Below, in pieces: positions 2,171-19,891 of a DNA stretch of 20,000 bases. The position numbers and the translations under genes are program-made. Every line of letters starts with the position of its first letter. The stretch's first letter is position 1. The notes under the pieces were generated by a model. That model made no database searches and had not been told where the DNA came from. It saw only the letters and a program-made list of their open reading frames with translations. The stretch is from Perkinsus olseni (lineage: Eukaryota): contig JABANN010000107.1 of the NCBI GenBank assembly GCA_013115125.1, positions 51,017 to 71,016 on the forward strand. Direction: 5' to 3'.

Positions 2171-3286
2171 ATGAGGCTGCCTGCAGAGATTATGGCTTTG
2201 GAGCTTCGAGTGCTCGAGACCATGCTGGAGAAGTCGGGCAGGTCGGGGACGCTACCCGAGGTTGGGAAGGCATACATGGATTTCTTGGGCACTCGACCGT
2301 GTACGCTGGACTGCCCTCGAGAGGAGGTCCTAGCGAACCCACCACCATCATACATCTTCGTTATGAACGAGGATCTGTGTGGTGTCTATCCCACCCCTAC
2401 TGGTGTATATATTAGGAAACCATTAGAACGTGGGGAGGAGGTCATGGTACTACAGCCAGGCTTTCAAGGTACCAAGGCTGTCTACTATTATAATAATAAC
2501 AACAAATCACAACTATTCGTATTGTGTGAGGATAATCGTAAGTTGATACAGTACAACCTTTCCGACTCGCCCGTAGGCCAAGGCGTGACCACTGAAGTCC
2601 TAGGCCTACCAAAAGCTACTGCCCTCAATAAGACCGCATCACAGCTCCTCTACACCGATGACTTCGTCTTTATCATTTTCCCTACCGGCCACCTCTTCTG
2701 CATCGACCGACTCGATATACGGGACGCGGCCCAGGCGAAGCTCATCTCCGCGGACCGACTCGATGCAGGGAGCACGCGGAGCCTGCTTTCGGTTCCTGGC
2801 GATTCGAAGGCGGTCAAGCTAGCAGTGTTGGGCTACCGAAGATTTAAGATGATTACTCTCAAATTAAAACAGAGGAGAAGCCCGTTGTACTTTGAAGAGG
2901 ATACTGAGGAGCTTGACGTGGCATCGAAGCTCGGTGAGACTAACAGTGAGATGATGCTAGTCCAGGATGTAGCCGGCCAGTGTCTCGCCGTGATGGCCAG
3001 GTCCGGCGGAGTTAGCGGGTGCCGAATTTTCCTTTGCAGCAGATCCCTGAGGCCTCTGGGGAAGGCTCTGGTGTTCTCTAATGAGTACCAGCCAGTGCGC
3101 AACCTGCAGGTTGTCTTTGGCGCGGATGATTTGGTATACGTTCTCCGCGAAGATAATACTCTGGTCGAGCGCTTCTTAGAGGAGGACTATGATCCCGAGT
3201 CGGTTCATGAGTCGGAGTTGCGTGGCGACTCAGACGCTGACTACTCGAGAGCCTGCAGGCTGGCCACTTACTACATTTATAGGTGA
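2171..3286 (+). CDS. Intronless hypothetical protein, tandem family copy 2 (371 aa)
   Basis: Long ORF, collinear with copies 1 and 3 over its full length, with the same conserved blocks. Confidence 0.87.
   Translation: MRLPAEIMALELRVLETMLEKSGRSGTLPEVGKAYMDFLGTRPCTLDCPREEVLANPPPSYIFVMNEDLCGVYPTPTGVYIRKPLERGEEVMVLQPGFQGTKAVYYYNNNNKSQLFVLCEDNRKLIQYNLSDSPVGQGVTTEVLGLPKATALNKTASQLLYTDDFVFIIFPTGHLFCIDRLDIRDAAQAKLISADRLDAGSTRSLLSVPGDSKAVKLAVLGYRRFKMITLKLKQRRSPLYFEEDTEELDVASKLGETNSEMMLVQDVAGQCLAVMARSGGVSGCRIFLCSRSLRPLGKALVFSNEYQPVRNLQVVFGADDLVYVLREDNTLVERFLEEDYDPESVHESELRGDSDADYSRACRLATYYIYR
2306..2547 (+). repeat. Near-identical in-frame cassette, copy 2 of 3
   Basis: The core 2339-2488 differs from 1004-1153 at only 2 of 150 nt, both synonymous. 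Confidence 0.95.
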
Positions 3287-4234: not shown

Positions 4235-5371
4235 ATGAAATTGCCGCCCCACGCCATGGCCTTGGATTTACACCTCTTCGAGTCGGTGGTGCAGAAGTCT
4301 GCCGGTATGGGCTCCTTGCCTGAGTTGATGTGCGAGTTCGCCCCTTACATCGGGAAGAGGGAGCTTACGCTGGACTGCCCTCAAGAGGAGGTCCTAGTGA
4401 ACCCACCACCATCATACATCTTTGTTCTGAATGAGGATCTGTGTGGTGTCTATCCCACCCTTACTGGTGTATATATTAGGAAACCATTAGAACGTTGGGA
4501 GGAGGTCATGGTACTACAGCCAGGCTTTCAAGATACCAAGGCTGTCTACTATTATCATAATAACGAATCACAACTATTCGTATTGTGTGAGGATAATCGT
4601 AGGTTGATTATTTATGACCTGAAAAGCAGCCCCAAGCCAACCAGCATCGTAGTTGAGGTCCTGGGCTTGCCCGGTTCCAAGAGTAGCTATATGGATGAAA
4701 GTGGCGTGGAATTAGCTTGCACTGACGACTTTGTCTTTGTCCTCTCCGGTGCCCAGCGTATCTTCTGCATCGATCGACTTGGGGTCGTTGATAGCGCCCA
4801 AGCTAAGCTCATTTGGTCTGCCCGCTTCACGATGGTTGAGAACAGCCATCTGATGATAGATCCTCGGGAACCTCGGGCTGCGCAGCTGATATTATCATGT
4901 TCTTCCGAGTCACAGCATCCGTGGGTCCTCCTCGCGCTGCAGTTGAAAACCCGCCGAGAGCCTCTTTACTTCAGCAAGGCCTTCAGCGCGATTACCCCAC
5001 AGGTGAGTAGAGATGAGGATGAAGATGAGGAGGCTACTGCTGTATACGACATTCAACCTGTTGGTCATCACGTCTTGGCAGTGCACCACGCTGCCCCCTT
5101 CGTCGGAGAAGAGGCGATCACGCTTTGCAATCGGCAAATGTATGCCCTAGGCCCACCGATGCCTCTGTTGGACCTCTACGAGTATCATGAACCACAGAGG
5201 AAGCAGCTAGTTTGTGGGGAGAGAGACCTCATCTACACCATTGGTGACGCCTCCTTTGATGCCGCTGACATAAACAATGCCAGCGCGAGAGTCGGGAATA
5301 AGAAAAGAAGAGTCGCCCGAAGACCGGGATCGGCGTCTCTAATTGGATCTTATTACGTTTCTAAGAAGTGA
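4235..5371 (+). CDS. Intronless hypothetical protein, tandem family copy 3 (378 aa)
   Basis: Long ORF. The N-terminus MKLPPHAMALDLHLFE aligns with MRLPAEIMALELRVLE of copy 2, and the same conserved blocks are present. Confidence 0.87.
   Translation: MKLPPHAMALDLHLFESVVQKSAGMGSLPELMCEFAPYIGKRELTLDCPQEEVLVNPPPSYIFVLNEDLCGVYPTLTGVYIRKPLERWEEVMVLQPGFQDTKAVYYYHNNESQLFVLCEDNRRLIIYDLKSSPKPTSIVVEVLGLPGSKSSYMDESGVELACTDDFVFVLSGAQRIFCIDRLGVVDSAQAKLIWSARFTMVENSHLMIDPREPRAAQLILSCSSESQHPWVLLALQLKTRREPLYFSKAFSAITPQVSRDEDEDEEATAVYDIQPVGHHVLAVHHAAPFVGEEAITLCNRQMYALGPPMPLLDLYEYHEPQRKQLVCGERDLIYTIGDASFDAADINNASARVGNKKRRVARRPGSASLIGSYYVSKK
4370..4622 (+). repeat. Near-identical in-frame cassette, copy 3 of 3
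   Basis: The core 4403-4552 differs from 1004-1153 at 6 of 150 nt. Confidence 0.95.
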
Positions 5372-5707: not shown

Positions 5708-7819
5708 ATGTGTAATACAACTGTTCCCAGCGGCCGGGATGAAGCAGCGTCATCTGCTGCCAGCACAACCTCCTCATCGGAATCGACTTGTTCTGGGGAG
5801 CCCAGGCTACCACTGCAAATGGAGATCTCTCTGCGCAGCAAGGTGGGACTGAGTGGGCTTAGAGGATCCTCCCCTGAGACTCCAGTGGGCGGCACTTCCC
5901 CGTTCTTCAGTCCTTAGTAACCATGATGAGTGTACGAAGCAAGGAGTGGTCAGTCATGGACGACCTATGGCGAACCTCTTCTATGCTCAACAGACGGGAG
6001 AGGCGACCAGGGGTCAACATGGACGTAACGATCGGACTGAGGGACCGATCAATGTCTGACCGATCCTTATCGTCACAGTAGGTTGACACGCTCCGTGTGG
6101 AGAACATGACTTGGCGAATGAGAAACAAGTGGAAGAACCATGTGCCCTCCGAGATAGACTACGAGGATGATGCTAGTGTAAGAAGAATGCAATTTCGTGG
6201 CGCGCGACAAAGCTTGGGTGATCTCAGCCGGACTCTGCAGGCATCGACGAGTCTTGCAAAGGCCTTCTTGACGTTATCAAGGACCACAATGAAGATATTG
6301 AAGTCGAGACTAGCCGGTAAAATAATGCGGCGGAGCGAAGTTTTTTCTGCTATCTTTGACTGAGCCCATTGCCTCTAGGATCCTAGCTGGAGCTCCCTTC
6401 GCCAGTACCTCTCTGAGCAGCGTCTTCCGTCACGAGTAAGGCAGGCGCCTACCGATCGGGAATCATGCGCAGCTTTCAGTCACTACCACGGCTTCCTGCT
6501 GGACATGGATGGTGTCCTTCACCAGTTCGGCAAGGCTATCCCTGGCGCCAGTGAGTTCATGACCACACTCAACGCTGGGCAGGTAGCCGCCTCCTTGGGT
6601 CGAGGCTTCTTCTTCACACTTCCATAGGTGCCGTACATGCTGCTGACCAACGAGTGTCGGTACACTACGGAGGAGTTGAGTCGGAATCTATTGAGCATAC
6701 TGGGGGTTAGCATACCCGCCAACCAGATCTACACGGCGGCTAACAGTAGGTCGCCACCTGCTCGGCCTCCCGCCGCTACTACGATCTCTCAGGTGCTGCG
6801 GACTTCTTCTGTCGGCTGATGGCTAACGGCTGGACGGGCGTGGTCTACATCGTCGGTGAGGTGCGTCACGGCTGGGATGAACCGTCACCCCTGCTAGCAT
6901 TTGTGTGATCAGATTGGTCTGGTCTCTACGGTGAGGCAGGCCTTTGTCAAACATGGGCTGCCGGAAGACTCGGTTGTCACGGGTGATACCAGGAGAAGTC
7001 GATCGCCGAAAGAAATTGATTACGTCCTCATCGGCTCGGTAACCAGCAATCTCGGTGAACAGAGAAACGCCGCAGCCAGGGATCGAACCGGCGTGATGCT
7101 ACGTCCTCCGCCAGGTCCACTCTGACAACACTCGGTACGTCGAGTACGCCTGCTCCTGCGTACAGGAAGGAGCTCGGCTCCTCTTCACCTGTCCTGATTA
7201 CTACGAGGTAGACCCTCTCCCCGTCCCTCCACCACATCCACTCCTTAGGTGACGTCGGATGGCAGCTACAAATTCGGCATGCCGATGCCGGCGGTTGAGA
7301 CCATATCCAAAGTAGACGGCCGCCACTACTACTGCTGCTGCTGCTGCTGGGCTTCATAACCGCCTTCAGGTTACTCATGCGTCCTCGTACAACCTGGGCA
7401 AGCCCAACCCACATATGCTCCGAATGGCTCGGCAGCGGTTGCTGTCACAGTATTCCCGTGGCCGCACCCCAGGGCTGGGGCCAGTCCTTTTTGTTGGCGA
7501 CTCTCTAGGTGCTTGCTCACCACTGGTGTGTCACCTGTCACCACCCATCTCACAGGTACGGACATCCGTACGGCTATTGAGAACGGCATAGACTGCGCCT
7601 TGGTCATGAGCGGGTGCACGGATGAACAACAGTTGAAGAGAAGCCCACTCCTCCCAAACTTCGTACCAAATTTCGCCCTATTCATCTGCGCTGTTTACCC
7701 TCCGTCAGGTTTTTGTGAGTATCAAAGAGCTCATGGCCGCCTATGGGAGCGGCTCGCTGGTGCCTTGCGTCCCCGACCTCCCAAGCAGCGCTGGGGTGGC
7801 CGCAGCAGCAGTGCACTGA
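5708..7819 (+). CDS. HAD-superfamily class IIA hydrolase (NagD/phosphoglycolate-phosphatase-like) with an N-terminal extension; spliced
   Basis: Predicted GT-AG exons: 5708-5842 (tentative), 5911-6024, 6082-6177, 6228-6316, 6379-6435, 6480-6582, 6628-6745, 6793-6860, 6913-7038, 7115-7207, 7249-7311, 7370-7508, 7556-7662 and 7709-7819 (13 exons plus the tentative first). They give one open frame with motif I FLLDMDGVL, motif II LLTN, motif III GKPNP, motif IV VGDSLGTDI and then ALVMSGCT...PNFVF. The start is uncertain (5708 or 5923). Confidence 0.88.
7326..7349 (+). repeat. (CTA)2(CTG)6 microsatellite inside an intron of the HAD gene
   Basis: Read directly; lies in predicted intron 7312-7369. 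Confidence 0.8.
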
Positions 7820-8074
7820 TAACGCTTCACACCCTGTCTATAATGAAGCTTCCTCAGCGTACACGTTACGCGAGGTGTCAATTTTTTGACGGGCTCGAGT
7901 CCTCGGAGAGGATCGTCAATGGTCACTCCCCTCGATCGGTTCCTGTGGATCATCTGATGCTACTCGCGAGATGAGCCAACTAATGTGTCCTTATAGACTT
8001 AACGGCAGTCTCGCGTTAGTGAATTCATATGAGGAGGCACACGGACATTAGGGAACGTTTCTGGGGGAGTCCGC

Positions 8075-11000
8075 ATGACTGCCTGTGAGAGTGATGCAGA
8101 ACAAGAGGACTGGCGAGAGTTTCAGAGAGCGACTTCACCCAGCGAACACTGTGCGGCACCTGACGCGGGCTTGCTGCCCGGACGTGCAGCTGTCCGTAGG
8201 TGCGGGCTCTAAGGAAGACGGGCTAGGTGGCGGTGAAGAAATGGAAGCGATCGCACAGAGGCAGCATGCTACCACTCGGGATAGCGCTGTGCAGGAAATA
8301 CAAGCCGGGAGGGGTGACTGTGTGGTCCCAGAGCGCACCAAGAATGGCCAAGTGGGGCCCACTGCGGCCCAGGGTTCAGCTCCGGGAAAGAGCCGGAGCA
8401 CTCACGACCTACCCCGGCTCGAGGAACTGATAGAAAAAGCAGTAAACAGGCGATCGGGCATGAAGGTGGTGTAATTGTCATTCCGGCTGCTCAGATGGAA
8501 GACGCCGGGCCGAGTCCAACCCATGAGACCACATCCACTCCGATCTCAGAGTCTAGCAGATCACCCTCTGTCGTGTCCGAGGACTTTCACGAGATACGGG
8601 TACGAGAAATCTCCTTCGCGGTGCTAGCGTTGGCTCCAGGCTTGCGCGCCCGTCCTCACGGACTACGACCTGGAGGACCAAGAAGCCAGCAAGATGCGGA
8701 TCTTCGTCCACTCGGAGTACCGCCGTCTCAGTTATCACACCGAGCCTGCACCTTCAGAGCTCAGGCACGGTCGGCACGCAGTTGGCTGGTTCACTGATAT
8801 CTCCTCCCCAGCGGACATACGGGAGTGTATATTCGCCGCGGTGGACAGCATCGTCGATGATGGCGCGAAGGTGTTCAAATTACGCTCCCGGAAGTCGGGT
8901 AAACTACTCTTGTGAGAGTCAGGGCGTTCCGCTCCGCTAAGGTACGATCATCGGCCTGGACTCGGACGAAGATCTCCCCAAACTCACCAAAGGCGAACAC
9001 TACGACCTGCTGGTCGGCGACCGCCTGGCCAGCCTTGGTCATGACAATGATGATGCAGCAAGTGTGGGGACGGGCTTCTGCCGCGGCACTCAACTGTGTA
9101 TGCTGCAGATGACTCGAGATGGCGGAGGTTGAGGGTATCAATCGACCCCATGAAGCATATGGAGACCACCAAGGCCTTGGAGAGGTGGCCATGGTCCCAC
9201 TCATGACTGCCAGGGGTTCGACCATCTGGAATCACTGTCTAGGCGCCTCTATTCGAGTTCGTGATGCTCAATAGCCGAGCCTGCTCCTGTCTCGGCACTC
9301 TTTCATCAGTGCATCAGGATGTGCCGCGGCACCAACCTTCTAAAACACACGGACCATGGCCACCCACACTTGCGGCAATTCCAGCTCTCGACTGACCACC
9401 AAAGGCTGCTGTGGTGAGCTCGTCCTGACTGGTCCACCTTTCGCGCAACTGATTATTATTGATGAGGGTGTTGTGGTTCTCTTGCTGTTGCCCTGTTCAT
9501 CGAATGCCGCACACGCTGCAATGCGTAGATGTGGACTCAACCCATCTCCCCATGCGGCAACTTCTCCCCGGCTAGAGCCTATCTGCAGGTACTCAGCAGG
9601 TCAAGACCGCAAGGAGTCCATAATGTCTCTTGCTGACGTGTGTGAGCTCAGGCTCGGACAGCAAACCCCCACTTTCCTCAAGTGAACCGTCCAAACCTCC
9701 CATCACAGTCGAGCGACTTGTTGGCTAGGTATCGGCTGCCTATGCTCCAGCATCTCTCCTTCTCACTCATCTACAAGCCTAGCGGCAGCGAGAAGGTCAC
9801 AGCACTGGACCTCACTTGCAAGGACGAATTCGAGTTAGGATTCGGGGAGCACTCGCTCTCACCGGGGTGATATCGTCAGGTACGACATCTGGCTGACTGG
9901 CCTCAAGGCCCTCCTCTGCGCCCAGCGGAATAGTAGGCGTTGCCTCTAGGCTTAGCCAGGGCAAGCCAGCGGCTAGGCACAATATCGAAGGAACAGCTCT
10001 TGGCACACTCGAGGAGGTTCAGGGACGCCTTGGAGAAGCAAAAAGTTCGAGTGAAGGTGTGCCCCATTCTATCGTCCTGCTTGATCACGACTTTTCAACT
10101 CGTAGTTGCTTGAGATGGATGAAGTGAAGGAGCGTGGCACAGTTGGTCTCTATGACTGTGTGAAAGTGTCAGAAAGTGAGGAGGCCGATATGGTATAATC
10201 AGCTCGAGTGTATTGCAGGTGCTTCTCCCAAGCAGCTCCGTGCTAAGCTCGAACGTTTACGAGATCGTCTTAAACACGTCAGGGCCGCACTCAATCGAGT
10301 CTTGGAGAACCGAGGTCCTTCGGAATACCTCGAAGTGCAGCTTTCCGCTACATCATCCTTAGGAGACGAAGAAGCTGTGCGTGACCAGGATGGGTCGGCC
10401 CCACTCACCGGCGTGGAATGGACGATTTCCTCGGCCGCAGAACCGGCGTACGAACGTGTTAAATCTTCTTCACTCCGGTGATTGACACCACTGCTTCAGC
10501 TACTCATCACTCCTGTCGGACGTGACTGATGTTGAGGATGAGGAAATGGAGGCCTCGCGTGCGGTTGAGCTCACCGACGGTGTACTCTTATCCTCATTTG
10601 CTCGTGGCGCCCGAGTACCCAAGCCTCAGGTATCTTATATACTGGATCGAGTCAGCTCCGACCTGCTTACCTTGGAAGGTGAGTCATTCAGGCGACCACT
10701 CGCTGTTTGTGATCATCCTTAACCTGCTCCGCAAGACGACTGAGCGGACTTAGGTCGAGGCACACAACCGGCAGGCGACAGGGGAACTCGACTCCGAGGG
10801 CTAGACCAGTCACTTTGGAAAGCCGAGGTCGACATCGAAAATGTCGAGGACATGTAGCTAAGCGATGCTCATTGCAATGCGGGTCGCGCTGAGCAACGCG
10901 AAGCAGGCTGGTGCCATCTCTTCTCAGGCGCCAACGTCTCCTCGAGGCCCGGGATAGGGATTCCGGTAGGGCAATAGGTCTGTTGCAGAGTCTTTGTCGG

Positions 11001-11889: not shown

Positions 11890-14073
11890 TCATGGCATTG
11901 AGGGAAACGTTGGCCTCCTGGACATCGATATTTCCAACTTGGCGGGCCCATAGGTCAACCTAGCTTTGACTTCAACCTCGGATATATCAGAACTGTGCTT
12001 TATGTCTGAGGAGATTACATCGTGGGTGGAGCCAAGTGGATTGAATAAAGAGACTCAAATTATTCAGCGTAAATCACGCCTAACTGCCGTAGGTCTGAAG
12101 CGATCTATTTGTAGGCCCGTATGCCGAACAGTATGTCAGCAAGCAAGAAGGCACTTCTTAGAGCCGAACGTTGGTTCTGATGTGCACGAAAGAAGTGCGT
12201 TAGGAAAGCTGTGCTCGTGGCACCATGCGACTCCGTCTTCTGAATTTAATCTCGATGATGGTTCGTCATCCGAGATCGGGGCACAATGTTCAAGTCGCGA
12301 GGGCATCCCCGTCTACGACCCTCAAAGGACGCACCTGAACGAGCTGCCGCCCTCAGCGTTGCTGCGCATCTGTTTTCCTGTGAGGGTAACTATCCAAGTC
12401 CCCTCTGGCACTTCATGCCCTCGAACTGACACGTTGGCTGTGGTTTCGTTTACGAGCAGCGGAACCGGTGATTTAAGCTGACGTGAGTGTGTTAAGAGGG
12501 GGCGCACGAAGTGGAGAGCAGCTTACGCGTAGGGTTTCCAGAATACAGCTCTCCACGAAGGGGAGTTGGTCAAGATCGTCGTTGGTCTCCGGATCGTGGC
12601 CGAGAATGTCCACTTCTTCCCGAGCTCTCGCTTGTGCATCAGGATAGAGACAGAGGTAGTAGAGGCACCAGGAGAGAGCGGCAGATGTGGTCTCACTGCC
12701 AGCGAAGAACAGCCTGAACAACAATAAGATCAGTCGCTCGAACATCGTAGGAACGGTCAGCTCACGTCACAATATTCCCCTCGAAGTCGTGCTTGTCCAA
12801 TTGCAGGAGCCCGCTGAGTAGATCCGATCTTTCACGTCCTTCCCATTCTGCCCTCCTCTGCACGGCGAGATCATCCGCGAACTTGTTCAGTCGATCGATA
12901 CTTGCATAGAACTGGGCGGAGAAGAACGACACTGCCTGTCATCCTCGACACGCAATTCACCTTCTTTATTATCGGGTTCAGATTCCAGGGGAAACGGTTT
13001 CGTGTGATAGAGGGAAGAATCGCACTGAAATCCAGTATATAAATTGATCCTTCCACGAAGTGGAAAATGGACTGAGCGATCTCCCGGGAACCGGGGGGAA
13101 CCGTGATGCCTGAGAGAGACGAACTCCCGACTGCCAGTTGGAGGGCGCTGTTACAGACGACCATCAACTTGAGACGCGATTCTCACCGTCGGGGTTGAGG
13201 AAATAGAAATCCATTCCAAAGGTAGTGAGGCATAAGACGTCGAGCGAGCATAGCATAAGCCAGTTGGTCGGCTCCCAAACAACCCGACCGTCACAATCTA
13301 GAGTCCGTAATTGTCGTACCTAGAGAGCCCCAGTAGGGACTACCCCATTGTAGCAGCGAGTAACTGATGACCTACCAGTCTTTTGGCGACGACTGCCATT
13401 GCGGGAACCATCTCTGCCGAGTTATGTTCGTTTAACGCCGGAGCTGCCAGCCTCCTGTTGCGCTTCCACTCCTCTCCCTCCGCAGTCAGCATGCCAGGAA
13501 TTGGCAGCAGCTTGTCCTTGTTGAATGCCCTTATAAAATTATGTGGACGCTCCTTAAGAACTCCTTTGATCGTCTCATAATTCGTCAAAACGACCGATTC
13601 TTGACCCATGATTCTGAAAAGCATTCTCAACAATCAGCCTGATTGAACCAAATGACAGAATATCGACGCGTCGCCCCGCAGAGTTACTTAATCGCGAAGG
13701 TATCGCCATAAGTATCGGCCAAGATCTCCAAGCCATAGAGAAAGTGCTCAGAGGACCTCGGGACGAATCCGAAATAAGGAATGGGCTGAGGGAAGTCGTC
13801 AAATGAATAGATTGGTCCGTAGGAAGCGAGCATGACAGTGGTCAGTCGACATTGACCACTCCTAGCGGGAGGTGAAGCCACGCTCACCCCGGGAGTTCCT
13901 CCGAGTCTGTCACACAGTGATGGTCGCTGTCTACGCCGCTTAGTGGCTCGGTAGAGGTAGACGGCGGCCACCACTGCCATCCCCGAGGCCATGAAACGGG
14001 GGAAGTGGCGGGAGCGCACCAATGATCGGATCTCGTTGACGAGGCCTGGAAGGACTTCGGCGAGTCGAATCAT
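11890..14073 (-). pseudogene. Cytochrome P450 paralogue 1 lacking the heme-binding segment (probable pseudogene)
   Basis: N-terminal anchor, PGPIPYFG hinge, C-helix WKRNRR, I-helix AGSETT and K-helix ETLR are present in exons collinear with paralogue 2. The last exon jumps from the acceptor at 12006 straight to the ...IKHSSDISEVEVKARL sequence. PQRW and FGSGPRRCPG are missing, and the spliced frame stops at 11989-11987. Confidence 0.8.
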
Positions 14074-14408
14074 TATTGGAGAATGAGCGCTCCAACCTTC
14101 CAGGCTGAGCTTTGGGTCCGGACTCTGTAGGATAAAGACGAGAAACACATCTCGGTGAGACATATCGCTCGCCCGACTAGTACACCCTGCTAGCCCTCGA
14201 GGGAGGGCGGTCAACTGTTTGCACCATAACTTAGTACAGTGTGTCTATTTGACACGGGCCCCAAAGAGAGGTGAGACCGGACTCGAGAGGAGCTCTGAAA
14301 AAGCTGATCCCCTCTAGGATCCAGAGTGAACGTACGCTCAATAGCATGACGAGTGTCGCGTTCGTTGACCTAGGCGCCTAGTTATTCGCTTCCCCACTCA
14401 CTCTAACC

Positions 14409-14606
14409 TTTACTCTTCCCCGTAGATGTCACGGGGGGGAGTCCCCCCCGGGGGACATTTTGCGCATGCGTGTGTGCATGCGTCTGGAGACACGCTCTCT
14501 TACTCTCCACTCTGCTTTCTGGGGTTTTCTACTTCTCTCTCCCCCGTTTTTTACTTTCCCCCGTAGGGGACACGGGGAGACACTGCGCATGCGTGTGTGT
14601 ATGCGT
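14409..14606. repeat. Imperfect direct repeat pair (14409-14483 and 14550-14606) upstream of P450 paralogue 1
   Basis: Both units read tttact..ccccgtag....cacgggg... and end in tgcgcatgcgtgtgtg(c/t)atgcgt. The 23-mers at 14461-14483 and 14584-14606 differ at one base. Confidence 0.75.
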
Positions 14607-15829
14607 TTTTAGATCGATATCTTCGATCCCGCTATTACGGCTCATCACTCGTAATCATACTGAACTGGGGATGTTTGTTTTCGTATGGGAAATGTTGTTA
14701 TTCAGTACGATTGTCACGCTTTCTAATGCTTGAGGCTAATGCCTCTATGGCTAGCCTACAATCATCAGTAGTTCCGGACTTGAGTTCTAGTGGTCCGAGT
14801 GACCTGGCTACACGAGGAACGCACGTGTGCACTGGAACGAACGTATGCACCACGATCAAAGGCACGGGCAATCTCAAAGAGAGCTATCTCAACGTAACTC
14901 TCCTCAACGAGTTGAATGATAAAGCACTTAGGCGTAGCAGTTGACAGTGGACAATTTCACAAGGGCTCATAAGCAGCGAAAACCGCGAGGTAACTCACAG
15001 TTTTCTCGCACGTCATTCTTATATCTTTCGGCGACTTTGGTCGGAAGGGTAAGGCAAGGTTCTAAAAGGCTCCTTACAGTAGGAGAGCAATGAACCGCAT
15101 TACCCCGCAATGCCTCATTGAATGAAGCGCTCTTCGAATAAGGGTATTACACAAAAGATTTTTTTGTAAGCCTCCTTACGGGCCTTATCTAACGTACTCT
15201 TGAGTTACTTAAGTACTTCTTCAAGAAGTCTTCTTGGGTTGCGTAATAAAACTAATAACACAACTCGGGATTAATCCCAACAATAATAGTACAAACAATG
15301 CCAATACCAACGATGATGTAGTAGTGGGAGTAGATACCGAAGATCTTGTACGATCCTAAGTTTTTAATAACAATTTTTACGTGACCTTAATCATACTAAC
15401 TTATGAGAATGATATCGAATCTACTATCGTGAAGACGCTAGTAGATTCTATAAGCTCAAGTAATGCGCACACGCCCAACTACCATCAGAGAAAAGAGACA
15501 ATAGTTCGCGCAACAGTACCGTAGGTGATCCTCGGAGGGATCTTATGGGGATTCCTGCTCTCATCTTTACTTATCTTGCCGGACCTCCATTCCGCTCGAG
15601 CCTGACCCGCATGGACATTCGCGGAGCACCTTCACTTCTCGCTCGCCAAAACCCCTCGAGCATTTCTGACTTTGAAGCACTAGCTCCCTGCACCACAATA
15701 CCAAGTGATAGGCGTGACGTCATGCTATATTGAGAAATGATATTTTCAGCCAACGCAGTGTCGTGACGATGCTTGGTTCCCTGGTAGCCATGCTGTATGC
15801 GTGGGGCCTTGCACGCAAAACTACCTGGC

Positions 15830-15924
15830 CTTGTTGGCATTGCCAACAAGCTGCCAACTTGGCAGCTTGTTTCGGAGTTGCCCCGAGAATGGCGCGGAAA
15901 CAATGTTTCCGCACCATCCTCGGG
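15830..15924. repeat. Cluster of three inverted repeats
   Basis: cttgttggca-t-tgccaacaag (15830-15850); aacaagctgccaa-c-ttggcagcttgtt (15845-15871); cccgagaatggcgcggaaaca-a-tgtttccgcaccatcctcggg (15882-15924, 19 of 21 paired). Confidence 0.9.
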
Positions 15925-16691
15925 CTTGCTCGAGAGGCACGACCACTCGAGTGCTTCACATCGGCAAACGTCCAACTAAGCCGGGATCGGCATTGGACTA
16001 TAAACTCACACACGACTCCAGTACGATGGGCCCAACTTCAAGATGATGCTATTCTCCAGCCGAAGGCACATGACGTAGAGTGAAGTCGATGGATCCACGC
16101 AGAGCACGCCTTCTAGCTTTCACATTTGGTCGTCTCCATTTCGGGGACGAAAGGCAGGGAAATGGTCGACTTCAAATAGACGAACGCGTCGTCCTGACCG
16201 TTCACGAACAGATGATAGACAAACATGAAATTCACTCAATGAATCGCAGAACAATGTTCTGAGAACATGATTGAGGGTGTAGTCCGCGAGGTTTTGCGCC
16301 GCTAGGAGCCGGCTCATGCTTTGCACGGCAGATTCATGCCAAACGCCTGAGAGTGTTGAAGTCTCACATGGCCCGTCGGAACTGAACTCAAGCTCATCTA
16401 GGATTTAATGAGACTTAGCATCAGAACATATGATTGTCGACGACAACAGAAGCAACTTGCTTCAAGCAAGAAAAGCCTCAACTGCTATAGTAACTGTAGC
16501 AGTTGAACTATAGAATAGTGCTAAGCCAAGCCTTGCGAAAGAATGGAAAACCCTGTTTATGTCTTAACTCTAAGCAAAACGCTATTCGTAGTGAGTCGGG
16601 GTTAACTTGAGGATTGCTCTAACTTGAAGCCTTTATCTTGCCGATTGGCCTCGGGTCATCCAGCCCTCAACGACAGTGGTGCTACAGAAGA

Positions 16692-19163
16692 TCAACTCTG
16701 TCTTCTGGACATCGAGATTTCTAAGTTAGCTGGCCCGAAGGTGAATCTAGCTTTGACTTCAACCTTGGATATATCAGAACTGTGCTTTATGTTTTCGAAA
16801 TGACGTAGGATCATCGCCAGCACCATAGTGCCCTCTTTGATTGCCATACTCGATCCGGGGCAGCGGCGAGGACCGGAACCGAATGCCAAGTGCTCTTGAA
16901 CACGAGCTCGGTCTACGCCGCCGTCGGAGGTCAACCAACGCTGTGGGCTGAGGAGATCACTTTGTGGACGGATCAAACTAGGTAAGTCATGAATACCAAA
17001 CCTGATGGCTCGTCATCCGAAGTTGGGGCACAACGTTCAAGTCGCATCACGACTGCCGTAATGGCTCTCCAGTTCACGACCCTTCAAAGACTCACCTAAA
17101 GAAGCTGCCGCCCTCAGCGTTGCTCCGCATCTGCTTGCCTGTGAGGGCAACTATCCAGGACCCCACTGGCACTTCATGTCCGCAAACTGACACGTTGGCT
17201 ATGGTCTCGTTCACGATTACGGGAGCCGGTGATTTGAGCTGATGTGCGTGTGAGGCGGCATACATGAAATGGAGAGCAGCTCACCCGTAGGGTTTCCAGA
17301 ATGCAGCTCTCCACGAAGGGTAGTTTGTCGAGATCGTCGTCGATGTCCGGGTCACGGCCCAGGGTGTCCACTTCTTCCCGAGCCCTCGCTTGTGCATCAG
17401 GGTAGAGACAGAGGTAGTAGAGGCTCCAGGCAAGAGCCGCAGATGTGGTCTCAGTGCCAGCGAATAAAATCCTGCACAACAATGCTATCCTTCACTTGAA
17501 CCACTCAAGTAGGTTTCCCCTACGTCACTATGTTTCCCTCGAGGGCACGCTTGTCCAGTTGCAGTAGCTTGCTGAGCAAGTCCGATCGTCTACACTCTCC
17601 CCCTTCTGCCCTTCTCTGCATGGCGAGGGGGGGGGGGGGGGGGGCCCCCCCCCCCCCCCCCGGGGGGCCCCGGGGGGGGGGGGTTGGGGGGTGGTGGGGG
17701 GGGGGGGGGGTGGGGGGGGGTGGGGGGCGGGGGGGGGGGGGGGGGGTGGGTGGGTGGGGGGGGGGGTCGGGGGGGGGGGNNNNNNNNNNCGGGGGGTTTT
17801 GCTTTCCCCGGGGGGCGCGGGCCCCCCCCCCCCCCCCTCCGCGCGGGGGGGGGGGGCGCGGCCCCCCCCCCCCCCCCCTCGCCATGCAGTTCACCAGTGG
17901 CGAACTTGTTCAATCGATCAATGCTCGTGTGGAACTGGGTACGGGTGAATGATGGCGGCGGTTGTCAGTGACAGCCTATGACTATGAATACGAACCTTAC
18001 ACTTCTTATCATCGGGTCCAAATTCCAGGGAAAATGATTTCGAGTTATGAATTGGAAGCCAGCGCGATCCATCACATACGCTGCCCCTTCCACGAAGTGG
18101 GATACTGATTCAGCAATCTTCTTGAAGCCAGTGGACACCGTAACGCCTGAGAGAGATGATGAACAAGTAGGTGGCGGTGAATTCAACTGGGTTGGATGTG
18201 GCTGTTAGGGACGAGTCACTCCACGATTACAGTACCACATTCTCACCGTCGGGGTTGAGGAAATAGAAATCCATTCCGAAGGTGGTGAGGCATAAGACTT
18301 CGAGCGAGCATAGCATAAGCCAGTTGGTCGGCTCCCACACAATGCGACCGTCACAATCTAGAGTCCGCAATTGTCGTACCTAGAGAGCCCCAGTAGGGTC
18401 TACCTCATCAGACTTGCGAGAGGCTGCTGACTTACCAATCTTTTGGCTACGACTGCCATTGCAGGAACCATCTCTGCCGAGTTATGTTCGTTGAACGCCG
18501 GAGCTGCCAGCCTCCTGTTGCGCTTCCACTCCTCCCCTTCCGTGTTGAACATACCAGGAATTGGGAGCAGCTTGTCCTTGTTGAAGGTCCTCAAAAGATT
18601 GTGTGGGCGCTTCTTGAGAATTCCTTTAATCGTCTTACAATCCGTCAAGACGACTGATTCTCGGCCCATGATTCTAAAACACCGTTCTAAAAAATCGTCC
18701 TGCTTGTACCGGCTGATGGACAAAGCGACCCGTTCACGGTGAAGGTTCACCAGATTTACTTGATCGCGTAAGCATCACCATACGTATCGGCCATGATCTC
18801 CAAGGCATAAACGAAGTGCTCGGCCGACCTCGGGACGAAGCCGAAATAAGGAATGGGCTGAGAAAAGTCGTTGCATGGACAGGGAAGACTCGTGATGGAG
18901 CGAGCATGACAGTGGTCAGTCGACATGGACCATTCACGGTGGGGGCTACAGCTACCCTCCGTGAGTGCTACGCCCACCCCGGGAGTTCCGCCAAATCTGT
19001 CACAGAGTGATGGGCGCCGTCTACGTCGTCTGATGGCCCGGTAGAGGTACACAGCAGCCACCACTGCAATCCCCGAGGCCAGGAGGCGGGGGGAGAGGCG
19101 GGAGCGCGCCAATGATCCAACCTTATTGAAGAGGCCGAGAAGGGCGTCGGCGACTGGGAGCAT
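16692..19163 (-). CDS. Cytochrome P450 paralogue 2 (spliced, 9 predicted exons; exon 6 interrupted by a gap/poly-G stretch)
   Basis: MLPVADALLG...AVVAAVYLYRAIRRRRRR anchor, PGPIPYFG, WKRNRR, AGTETT, ETLR, FFSPQRWL (PERF-like) and heme motif FGSGPRRCPG. GT-AG junctions are in the same positions as in paralogue 1. The CYP family cannot be assigned by eye. Confidence 0.88.
17627..17878. other. Poly-G/poly-C low-complexity stretch with a 10-N scaffold gap (probable sequencing/assembly artefact)
   Basis: Ns at 17780-17789 are flanked by G/C homopolymers. The stretch sits mid-exon, where paralogue 1 reads NKFADDLAVQRRAE without interruption. Confidence 0.85.
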
Positions 19164-19891
19164 GTTTGCGGAGTGAACGCCTGAGGCCCGAGAGGCCGAG
19201 AGGGCCAAAGACTCCCGTTGATGATGGAGCACAGCGTACACTGGAAATGCCCGAGAGGGACCTCAGCGCGAACGTCACGTCTTGCTCTGCCGCCGGACTC
19301 GCATTTGCCTCTTTGACAAGTTTCCACTCCGTGATGCGGAGCGGTTGCACGCATGCCCTGAGTGAGCCCATGTTCATCGGATGAACTTCATCCAACGCAA
19401 TATGTTCCCACGGAATGAGCTTGCTAGCACAACTCCCACGACACAGCCCGACGACCTGCAGTGCGATTGTGCCAGCGTCTTATGTACCGTCGTCGACTGC
19501 GTCGGGACTTCATAATATGCCAGCGCGTTTTGAAACCTGAACGCATGTGGCCACGCATGCGCATTTGAGGGTGTACGCATGCCCTGCGCATGATCACTTA
19601 TTCGCTAATAACTCCATAGCCAGTTAGCTATCGGCCACCCGACGAACTTCGGTAGCATGGGCCTCTCAGCCTCTACCCGCTGTATGTATCTCAACTTCGT
19701 ATCTGTTGTACATTTCGAACTAAACATGATCAACGACGAACAAAATTTCCGAATTTCACTTGCTCAACAACCAAAGGTTCTGGGAACTTGCTGGGAATTA
19801 GAAGTGCTTTTCGCGCTCGAACTGCCGCGCAGTTGTGTCAATCTTAGAATCGCAGCGGGGAGATTTCCGGTATGGCTCAAGTTGACCACCC

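Follow-up and report, generated by a model that had tools for sequence, protein, structure and literature searches.

The window, by which we mean the whole stretch of 20,000 nucleotides of Perkinsus olseni DNA analyzed here, contains two tandem cytochrome P450 genes on the minus strand, with a cluster of palindromes between them at 14370-16506 (Table 1). This intervening stretch was originally labeled spacer DNA. It is indeed non-coding, yet four or more repeat elements, among them R1 to R4, are nested in it. Within the second P450 gene, a low-quality G/C homopolymer tract around a 10-N gap (17627-17880) looks like an assembly artefact. Elsewhere in the window, three tandem intronless paralogous ORFs of 365-378 aa are located at 833-1930, 2171-3286 and 4235-5371, the first being without a Pfam match. 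Over their 5' thirds they hardly differ, a sign of possible gene conversion. A multi-exon gene lies on the plus strand at about 6480-7700, and its first exon carries what we take to be a HAD-family phosphatase-like motif.

Table 1. Coordinates of genes, host repeats and scars in the window. T is the 8-bp word of each scar; X9 and X10 are isolates described in the text.
Feature	Position	Strand	Description
Cytochrome P450 gene, intron-containing	11900..14090 (approximate)	-	PF00067 at 12473-12745 and 13340-13633; no scars
Host repeat R1	14220..14880 (end approximate)		miniature element (~258 bp, short terminal inverted repeats), in an interrupted copy whose right end was not recovered
Host repeat R2	14354..14812		459 bp, TG...CA ends, 4-bp duplication (CGAG), inserted in R1
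Scar 1	14434..14456		T = GGGGGGAC, 23 bp; join slipped one base in C run; both centres fit
Scar 2	15088..15127		T = CAATGAAG, +32 bp; 18-nt filler 15096-15113; both centres fit
Host repeat R3	15198..15530		carries scar 3; 27-29 other letters in its place in X9, X10
Scar 3	15215..15236		canonical 22 bp, T = ACTTCTTG, +14
Scar 4	15833..15865		T = GTTGGCAG, +25; two fold-back arms joined via common 6-mer; left centre misfit
Scar 5	15867..15924		T = TTGTTTCC, +36; left arm 2 nt, right arm ~28 nt; both centres fit
Host repeat R4	15957..16019	+	3' end of a family ending in a CA repeat; 39 other matches among 43 rows
Scar 6	16247..16268		canonical 22 bp, T = CAGAACAT
Outside two-hairpin rule	16434-16506		lone 1-nt-centred palindrome 16434-16446; 10-bp stem with 9-nt loop, 16478-16506
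Scar 7	16449..16470		canonical 22 bp, T = GAAGCAAG
Tandem P450 paralogue	16690..19180 (approximate)	-	71-91% direct repeats with first gene; no scars (17600-17900 skipped)
Scar 8, outside cluster	19372..19393		canonical 22 bp, T = GTTCATCC; upstream of second P450 gene

The family of R1 (about 258 bp; L006-L019) comprises at least 20 copies with TG...CA ends and 4-bp duplications. Inspected by eye, the duplication was present in 9 of 13 other copies, the remaining four having no right end. R2 is probably solo-LTR-like, and R4 appears to be a retroposon-like fragment. Contigs of X9 and X10, two diverged isolates (about 7% differing letters over 15924-16800), skip R2 altogether (joint 14348-14812).

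Single-base-centred palindromes between the P450 genes

All ten palindromes with a 1-nt centre listed in the original prediction were located where it had placed them, and their excess over chance was confirmed: ten palindromes (arm of at least 7 bp, spacer 1) compare with a mean of 0.17 in 60 dinucleotide shuffles of 14370-16506. Every other spacer from 0 to 10 gave 0 or 1 palindrome with an arm of at least 7 bp in the same interval, so that only spacer 1 is enriched. The palindrome at 15882-15924 is present, but it is perfect only across its 9-bp core (15894-15912), the full arm being 21 bp with 2 mismatches. The four reported A-A'-A triplets, in which the right arm of one palindrome is the left arm of the next, have to be redistributed. 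In the strict form, three are inside the cluster (15215, 16247 and 16449) and one is outside (19372), while 14434-14456 and 15833-15865 are looser variants. For even-centred palindromes, which had also been listed, only a weak local enrichment remained (arm of at least 5 bp, 6 versus 1.63 shuffled; at least 6 bp, 2 versus 0.48), and none was detected in a 195-kb genome sample (14 versus 18 in the control).

The ten palindromes collapse into six events. A seventh event, at 15088-15127, was missed originally and was exposed by the comparison contigs. Outside the cluster, lone 1-nt-centred palindromes were seen at 625-641 (arm 8) and 13631-13645 (arm 7), with no partner junction found for either.

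The 22-bp scar and its ancestral state

The palindrome pairs, hereafter called scars, are built from an 8-bp word T. The canonical and commonest form is 22 bp long and reads T[1-7], the reverse complement of T, then T[2-8], which amounts to a net insertion of 14 bp. In the wider form, T[1-7] is followed by the complement of the last base of T, fold-back DNA, the complement of the first base of T, and T[2-8]. With k the word length, the window contains four exact scars at k=8 and 0 at k=5-7 and 9-12. The centre bases are as predicted at 13 of the 14 positions in the seven in-cluster scars, six of these 13 being fixed by the canonical definition. The single misfit, in scar 4, probably results from one later transition. 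Several features of the cluster are not accounted for by this two-hairpin rule: the even palindromes at 14370, 15267 and 16306, the stem at 16478, the palindrome at 16434 and the 18-nt filler of scar 2, for which a search of 870 kb of DNA allowing up to 3 mismatches gave no match.

A single-word or scar-free ancestral allele was found at scars 1-5, in paralogues or in isolate contigs. The original prediction had proposed a comparison of orthologous loci between strains, and multi-letter blocks are indeed absent in other isolates. At scar 1, 16 letters are absent at 14434 in the X9 and X10 contigs of the host repeat; the scar is carried neither by the related sequence L003 nor by the window's own internal duplicate near 14570. 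At scar 2, one X10 contig joins 15091 to 15124 and thus has 32 letters fewer, from 15092. At scar 3, five R3 paralogues (L002, L004, L041-L043) have the single word and are 14 bp shorter, and an X9 contig is without 14 letters at 15216. Both palindromes of scars 4 and 5 are absent from the orthologous X9 and X10 contigs (joint 15832-15924), where 15833-15923 is replaced by 38 letters containing neither. By eye, the window's long left arm, reverse-complemented, corresponds to these 38 letters, even over a stretch now missing from the window's right flank, which indicates that the arm was copied from the flank by folding back. The right flank of scar 5 afterwards lost about 11 bp. The converse situation was also encountered: at 14484 the window keeps a single word, and an R2 paralogue from X5 carries a different +14 scar there. 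In L004, a 36-letter insertion aligned at 15283-15287 reads, by eye, as a further two-hairpin event with an 8-bp word and a 22-bp arm.

No single-word relative of scars 6, 7 and 8 was seen directly among paralogues and isolate contigs, and the paralogue search returned none covering scars 4-7. Gap counts in X9/X10 (21 deleted, 18 inserted) indicate that at most one of scars 6 and 7 is absent there, which speaks against a wholly recent origin of the cluster.

It is very improbable that the palindromes form a functional array, be it of alternative hairpin switches in RNA or DNA, of sites bound by proteins or of precursors of small RNAs. Two weak Rfam microRNA matches do exist at 15881-15925 (30.7 and 25.4 bits), but they are far under the gathering scores (70 and 57), and the Rfam search returned nothing at gathering level. 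Moreover, the arms have no common sequence, lie within unrelated repeats, and are missing at five sites in paralogues and other isolates. The lack of a common arm sequence upholds the original preference for a process over a binding site; together with the relatives that keep a single word, it leaves a hairpin switch unsupported. In the reading that we favor below, the cluster marks a neutral repeat nest between two P450 genes that took seven or more hits, and it records past jumps instead of serving a function.

Abundance of the scar in the genome

The scar was surveyed in 40 fixed-offset stretches of the larger contigs, a non-random sample of 395 kb out of 39.9 Mb (about 1%). Exact k=8 scars numbered 59 (21 in 195,016 bp and 38 in 200,000 bp), and 0 were found in shuffles; the control of the 200,000-bp sample was a shuffle of two-base blocks, weaker than that of the first sample. 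Exact scars were 0 at k=7 and 9-11 over the 395 kb, with one per sample at k=6, and the even-centred analogue (T, its reverse complement, T) was 0 for k=5-11 in the 195-kb sample. Allowing up to one mismatch raised the count from 59 to 94, so decayed scars are common. The density in the sample is 0.15 exact scars per kb (about one per 6.7 kb), beside 0.45 1-nt-centred palindromes per kb (arm of at least 7 bp). Extrapolation from this non-random 1% sample puts the genome's total near 6,000 for exact scars and 9,500 for near-exact ones. Their distribution is clumped: none occur in 18 of the 40 stretches, and two stretches hold 10 and 12. Therefore the cluster in the window is dense but not unique.

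An independent test used non-canonical neighbouring palindromes, picked without using their centre bases. A common inner word was shared by 22 of 88 such pairs at k=8, and by 1-9 at other k. After removal by hand of 4 duplicate rows, both centres were as predicted in 15 of the 18 unique pairs, against an expectation of 1 in 16. When the count was confined to the non-overlapping 395 kb, a common word was shared by 7 of 38 pairs, 5 of them with both centres right. Neighbouring palindromes up to 20 apart had a centre distance of 7 in 72 of 89 pairs. Finally, the scar words lean to T at position 2 and A at position 7 (142/384, 0.37 versus 0.24, p 9e-9), the corresponding value for T at 1 and A at 8 being 0.135, and 2 exact k=9 scars exist beside 192 at k=8.

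Fold-back chimeras created by the library or the assembly are an extremely improbable source of the scars. The evidence does come from assembled contigs only, and the window includes the poor-quality tract described above. Against such an artefact, X5 and X7 contigs, from two studies, span 15830-15924, 16247-16268 and 16449-16470 with 0 differences and are thus identical over four scars, a contig being counted as bridging when it reached 31 letters past the scar; X5 possibly comes from the same study as the source assembly. The scars at 14434 and 15215 are whole in an X5 contig, with only 23 letters beyond them. At least half of the words of the stretch were found in seven runs of three studies, with no RNA run among the listed runs sharing them, and the common one-mismatch scars likewise argue against an artefact.

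Proposed excision of transposons and the candidate makers

We propose that each palindrome pair is the repair scar of an excised cut-and-paste DNA transposon that had duplicated the 8-bp T, an origin which we hold to be very probable. Insertion would produce T-element-T, a state shown for hAT and Mutator-like element (MULE)-related copies elsewhere in the genome and supposed at the window sites. The transposase would nick one base into each flank and seal a flank hairpin with the lost base's complement at its tip, as is known for hAT and as the centre bases suggest here. A host nuclease would then open the hairpins off-tip, leaving 3' tails that, because both flanks end in T, would be exact complements over 8 bases. 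Annealing and ligation of these tails would yield the 22-bp string with its 14 additional bases. In the long-armed variants (scars 4 and 5), longer tails may have annealed on a chance 5-6-base match. What the sequences show is the product itself and, at five of the seven in-cluster scars, that it arose where a single T had been.

Three mechanisms had been put forward originally: hairpin-type transposon excision repair, template switching and a hairpin switch. Only the first is retained, because neither of the others predicts the fixed length of 8 and the centres complementary to the word ends. Short-range template switching during replication, in which 8 bases are copied from the opposite strand and no transposon takes part, is improbable. 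In the four-point model (10.1101/038380), a single event can write any string of this kind and gives rise to new inverted repeats; this one-step origin of short inverted repeats resembles the scars, which differ in their fixed length. By our own mapping, however, the scar needs the switch order 3-4-1-2, with point 4 before point 1, a class unobserved in the human data of that paper. The model also sets no length of 8, and ties no distant hairpin pairs to one 8-bp word. The perfect even palindrome at 15267-15278, which has three differences from all five paralogues, may be a template-switch event or a quasi-palindrome correction.

Several points stand against excision, one being that tens of elements were found, versus about 6,000 extrapolated exact scars. 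This excess of two orders of magnitude would favor a hairpin-forming nuclease or domesticated transposase that cuts ordinary DNA with an 8-base stagger, repair then leaving the same scar at a place which never received an element. The same can be said of the filled sites, since no T-element-T allele was seen at any window scar among the matches listed (paralogues and four runs). Such an element-free route is nevertheless quite improbable. It needs T to be duplicated before the hairpins form, a duplication that insertion supplies naturally. Elements with 8-bp duplications do exist in the genome, one of them with fold-back arms at its ends.

Several elements were considered as makers. R1 and R2 were ruled out by their 4-bp duplications and are hosts of the scars. 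A 184-bp element with an 8-bp duplication (L007) was rejected as a large maker family, with only 1 full copy and 3 partial ones.

We consider a hAT element to be the probable main maker. An 8-bp duplication is typical of hAT elements, including Hermes and TcBuster (PMC6900584 and PMC3499496), and flank hairpins are produced by hAT as well as by MULE transposases (PMC5499845 and PMC6900584). The genome contains 11 hAT dimerisation-domain matches. In one contig, C521, a collapsed hAT has an open frame of 819 codons matching PF05699 and PF14291; a full-length relative from Perkinsus marinus has 76% identity. This frame also carries the DDE, CxxH and W motifs of hAT transposase. Their spacing agrees with PMC5499845. 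Another element, L037, is a complete hAT of 4,094 bp with an 8-bp duplication.

The C521 element is present as two copies with identical ends (contigs C521, C2937, C289, C1438 and C3003; L032, L067-L070), whose left and right flanks were matched through the duplication and not by assembly. Terminal inverted repeats are seen in copy A, and its 8-bp duplication is perfect. Copy B has lost a few bases from each end, and beside both trimmed ends lie fold-back arms that derive from one 8-bp word and have complementary 1-nt centres. This is what one would see had both flanks been cut to hairpins and then rejoined to the element. It would be less economical to suppose that the element had inserted into an older scar and later suffered damage at its two ends. 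By eye, an older scar, shifted by one base, overlaps the right flank of copy B. In addition, 1-nt-centred palindromes with arms of 16-64 bp occur in and beside old hAT genes (L039, L033, L035 and L036), indicating that the transposase genes were themselves scarred. Hermes shares the flank hairpin, and its nTnnnnAn preference (PMC6900584) goes in the same direction as the scar words, whose bias is weak (0.37). The elements themselves contribute only 4 hAT-type target words for comparison with the T2/A7-biased scar words.

The same hairpin mechanism driven mainly by a MULE with 8-bp duplications is possible, though rather unlikely. There are 18 MULE matches in the genome, six with open frames of 540-935 codons. 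A family sharing subterminal repeats with a MULE contig, C204, has 20 ends and is more numerous than the hAT copies found. Of its 8 A-ends, 7 have a partner among the B-ends at exactly 8 bp, and 6 of these pairings are perfect. One related pair reads by eye as 9 bp, and there are the 2 exact k=9 scars beside the 192 at k=8. This 8-bp family (L154-L172 and L144, collapsed) has 15-bp subterminal repeats and two different terminal motifs; it is linked to MULE by the shared subterminal repeats only, its interior not having been recovered. No terminal repeats were found within 13 MULE contigs. Muta1, a MULE of Aedes aegypti, has similar subterminal tandem repeats (PMC5499845 and PMC5225508), and forms flank hairpins with 8- or 9-bp duplications (PMC5499845).

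However, MULEs are thought to excise cleanly. In yeast, Muta1 excision is about 90% precise when the duplication is present, and Muta1 shows no target preference (PMC5225508), whereas the scar words are biased. Fold-back arms on trimmed termini were seen by eye at 0 of 20 MULE-family ends, for which the search pattern selects intact ends, versus 1 of 2 copies of the C521 hAT. The 13 MULE target words carry T2/A7 at 9/26 positions (hand count), a value that does not separate hAT from MULE. The precise excision of Muta1 and its lack of target preference favor hAT, without settling the matter.

The hairpin route has known parallels. Ac/Ds excision likewise gives palindromes centred on the complement of the element-adjacent base, usually with microhomology (PMC5873905), and P-nucleotide insertions, flank hairpin, hairpin opening and microhomology joining are alike, yeast arms reaching about 20 nt (PMC5873905 and PMC1978519). 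In the same sources, products are short or mixed, with at most 3 nt in Candida albicans, versus one dominant +14 product here. TcBuster footprints in human cells consist of a few inserted bases or deletions, unlike the +14 scar (PMC3499496). That hAT footprints are short or heterogeneous in Candida, plants, yeast and human cells (PMC5873905, PMC1978519 and PMC3499496) counts against the excision reading. Unlike Ac/Ds, the P. olseni scar uses the whole 8-bp duplication as microhomology, and an extrapolated thousands of copies exist in a natural genome. The mechanism is an established one, met here in an unusually uniform and abundant form, for which the present analysis supplies candidate makers and ancestral states. 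No description of the scar was found in the Perkinsus literature covered, a coverage outside which most subscription papers and supplements lie.

Repair genes were searched in connection with the uniform product. Loss of Ku as its cause was not supported, since 2 exon matches at a single locus reveal a Ku-domain gene. The search also recovered one DRMBL gene, which resembles SNM1A (158 bits) more than it does Artemis (67 bits). A motif search for ligase IV was blank and equally blank in all controls, and three ATP-ligase loci of unassigned type were found. It is conceivable, though we regard it as unlikely, that P. olseni nearly always anneals the whole 8-bp duplication (perhaps through SNM1A/Pso2-type opening, without Artemis or ligase IV), that the main maker is a MULE, and that the genome holds 6,000-9,500 readable, datable records of jumps. 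If whole-duplication annealing by this route and a MULE maker were confirmed, insertion preference, turnover rate and isolate-specific markers could be obtained from sequence alone.

Excision is usually hard to see because footprints tend to be short and mixed; here it takes one fixed, countable shape. The scars also represent one route of non-coding DNA growth, at 14 bp per event, and vary between isolates. Altogether, they make past transposon traffic, and the repair route that followed it, readable in an understudied alveolate that parasitizes shellfish.
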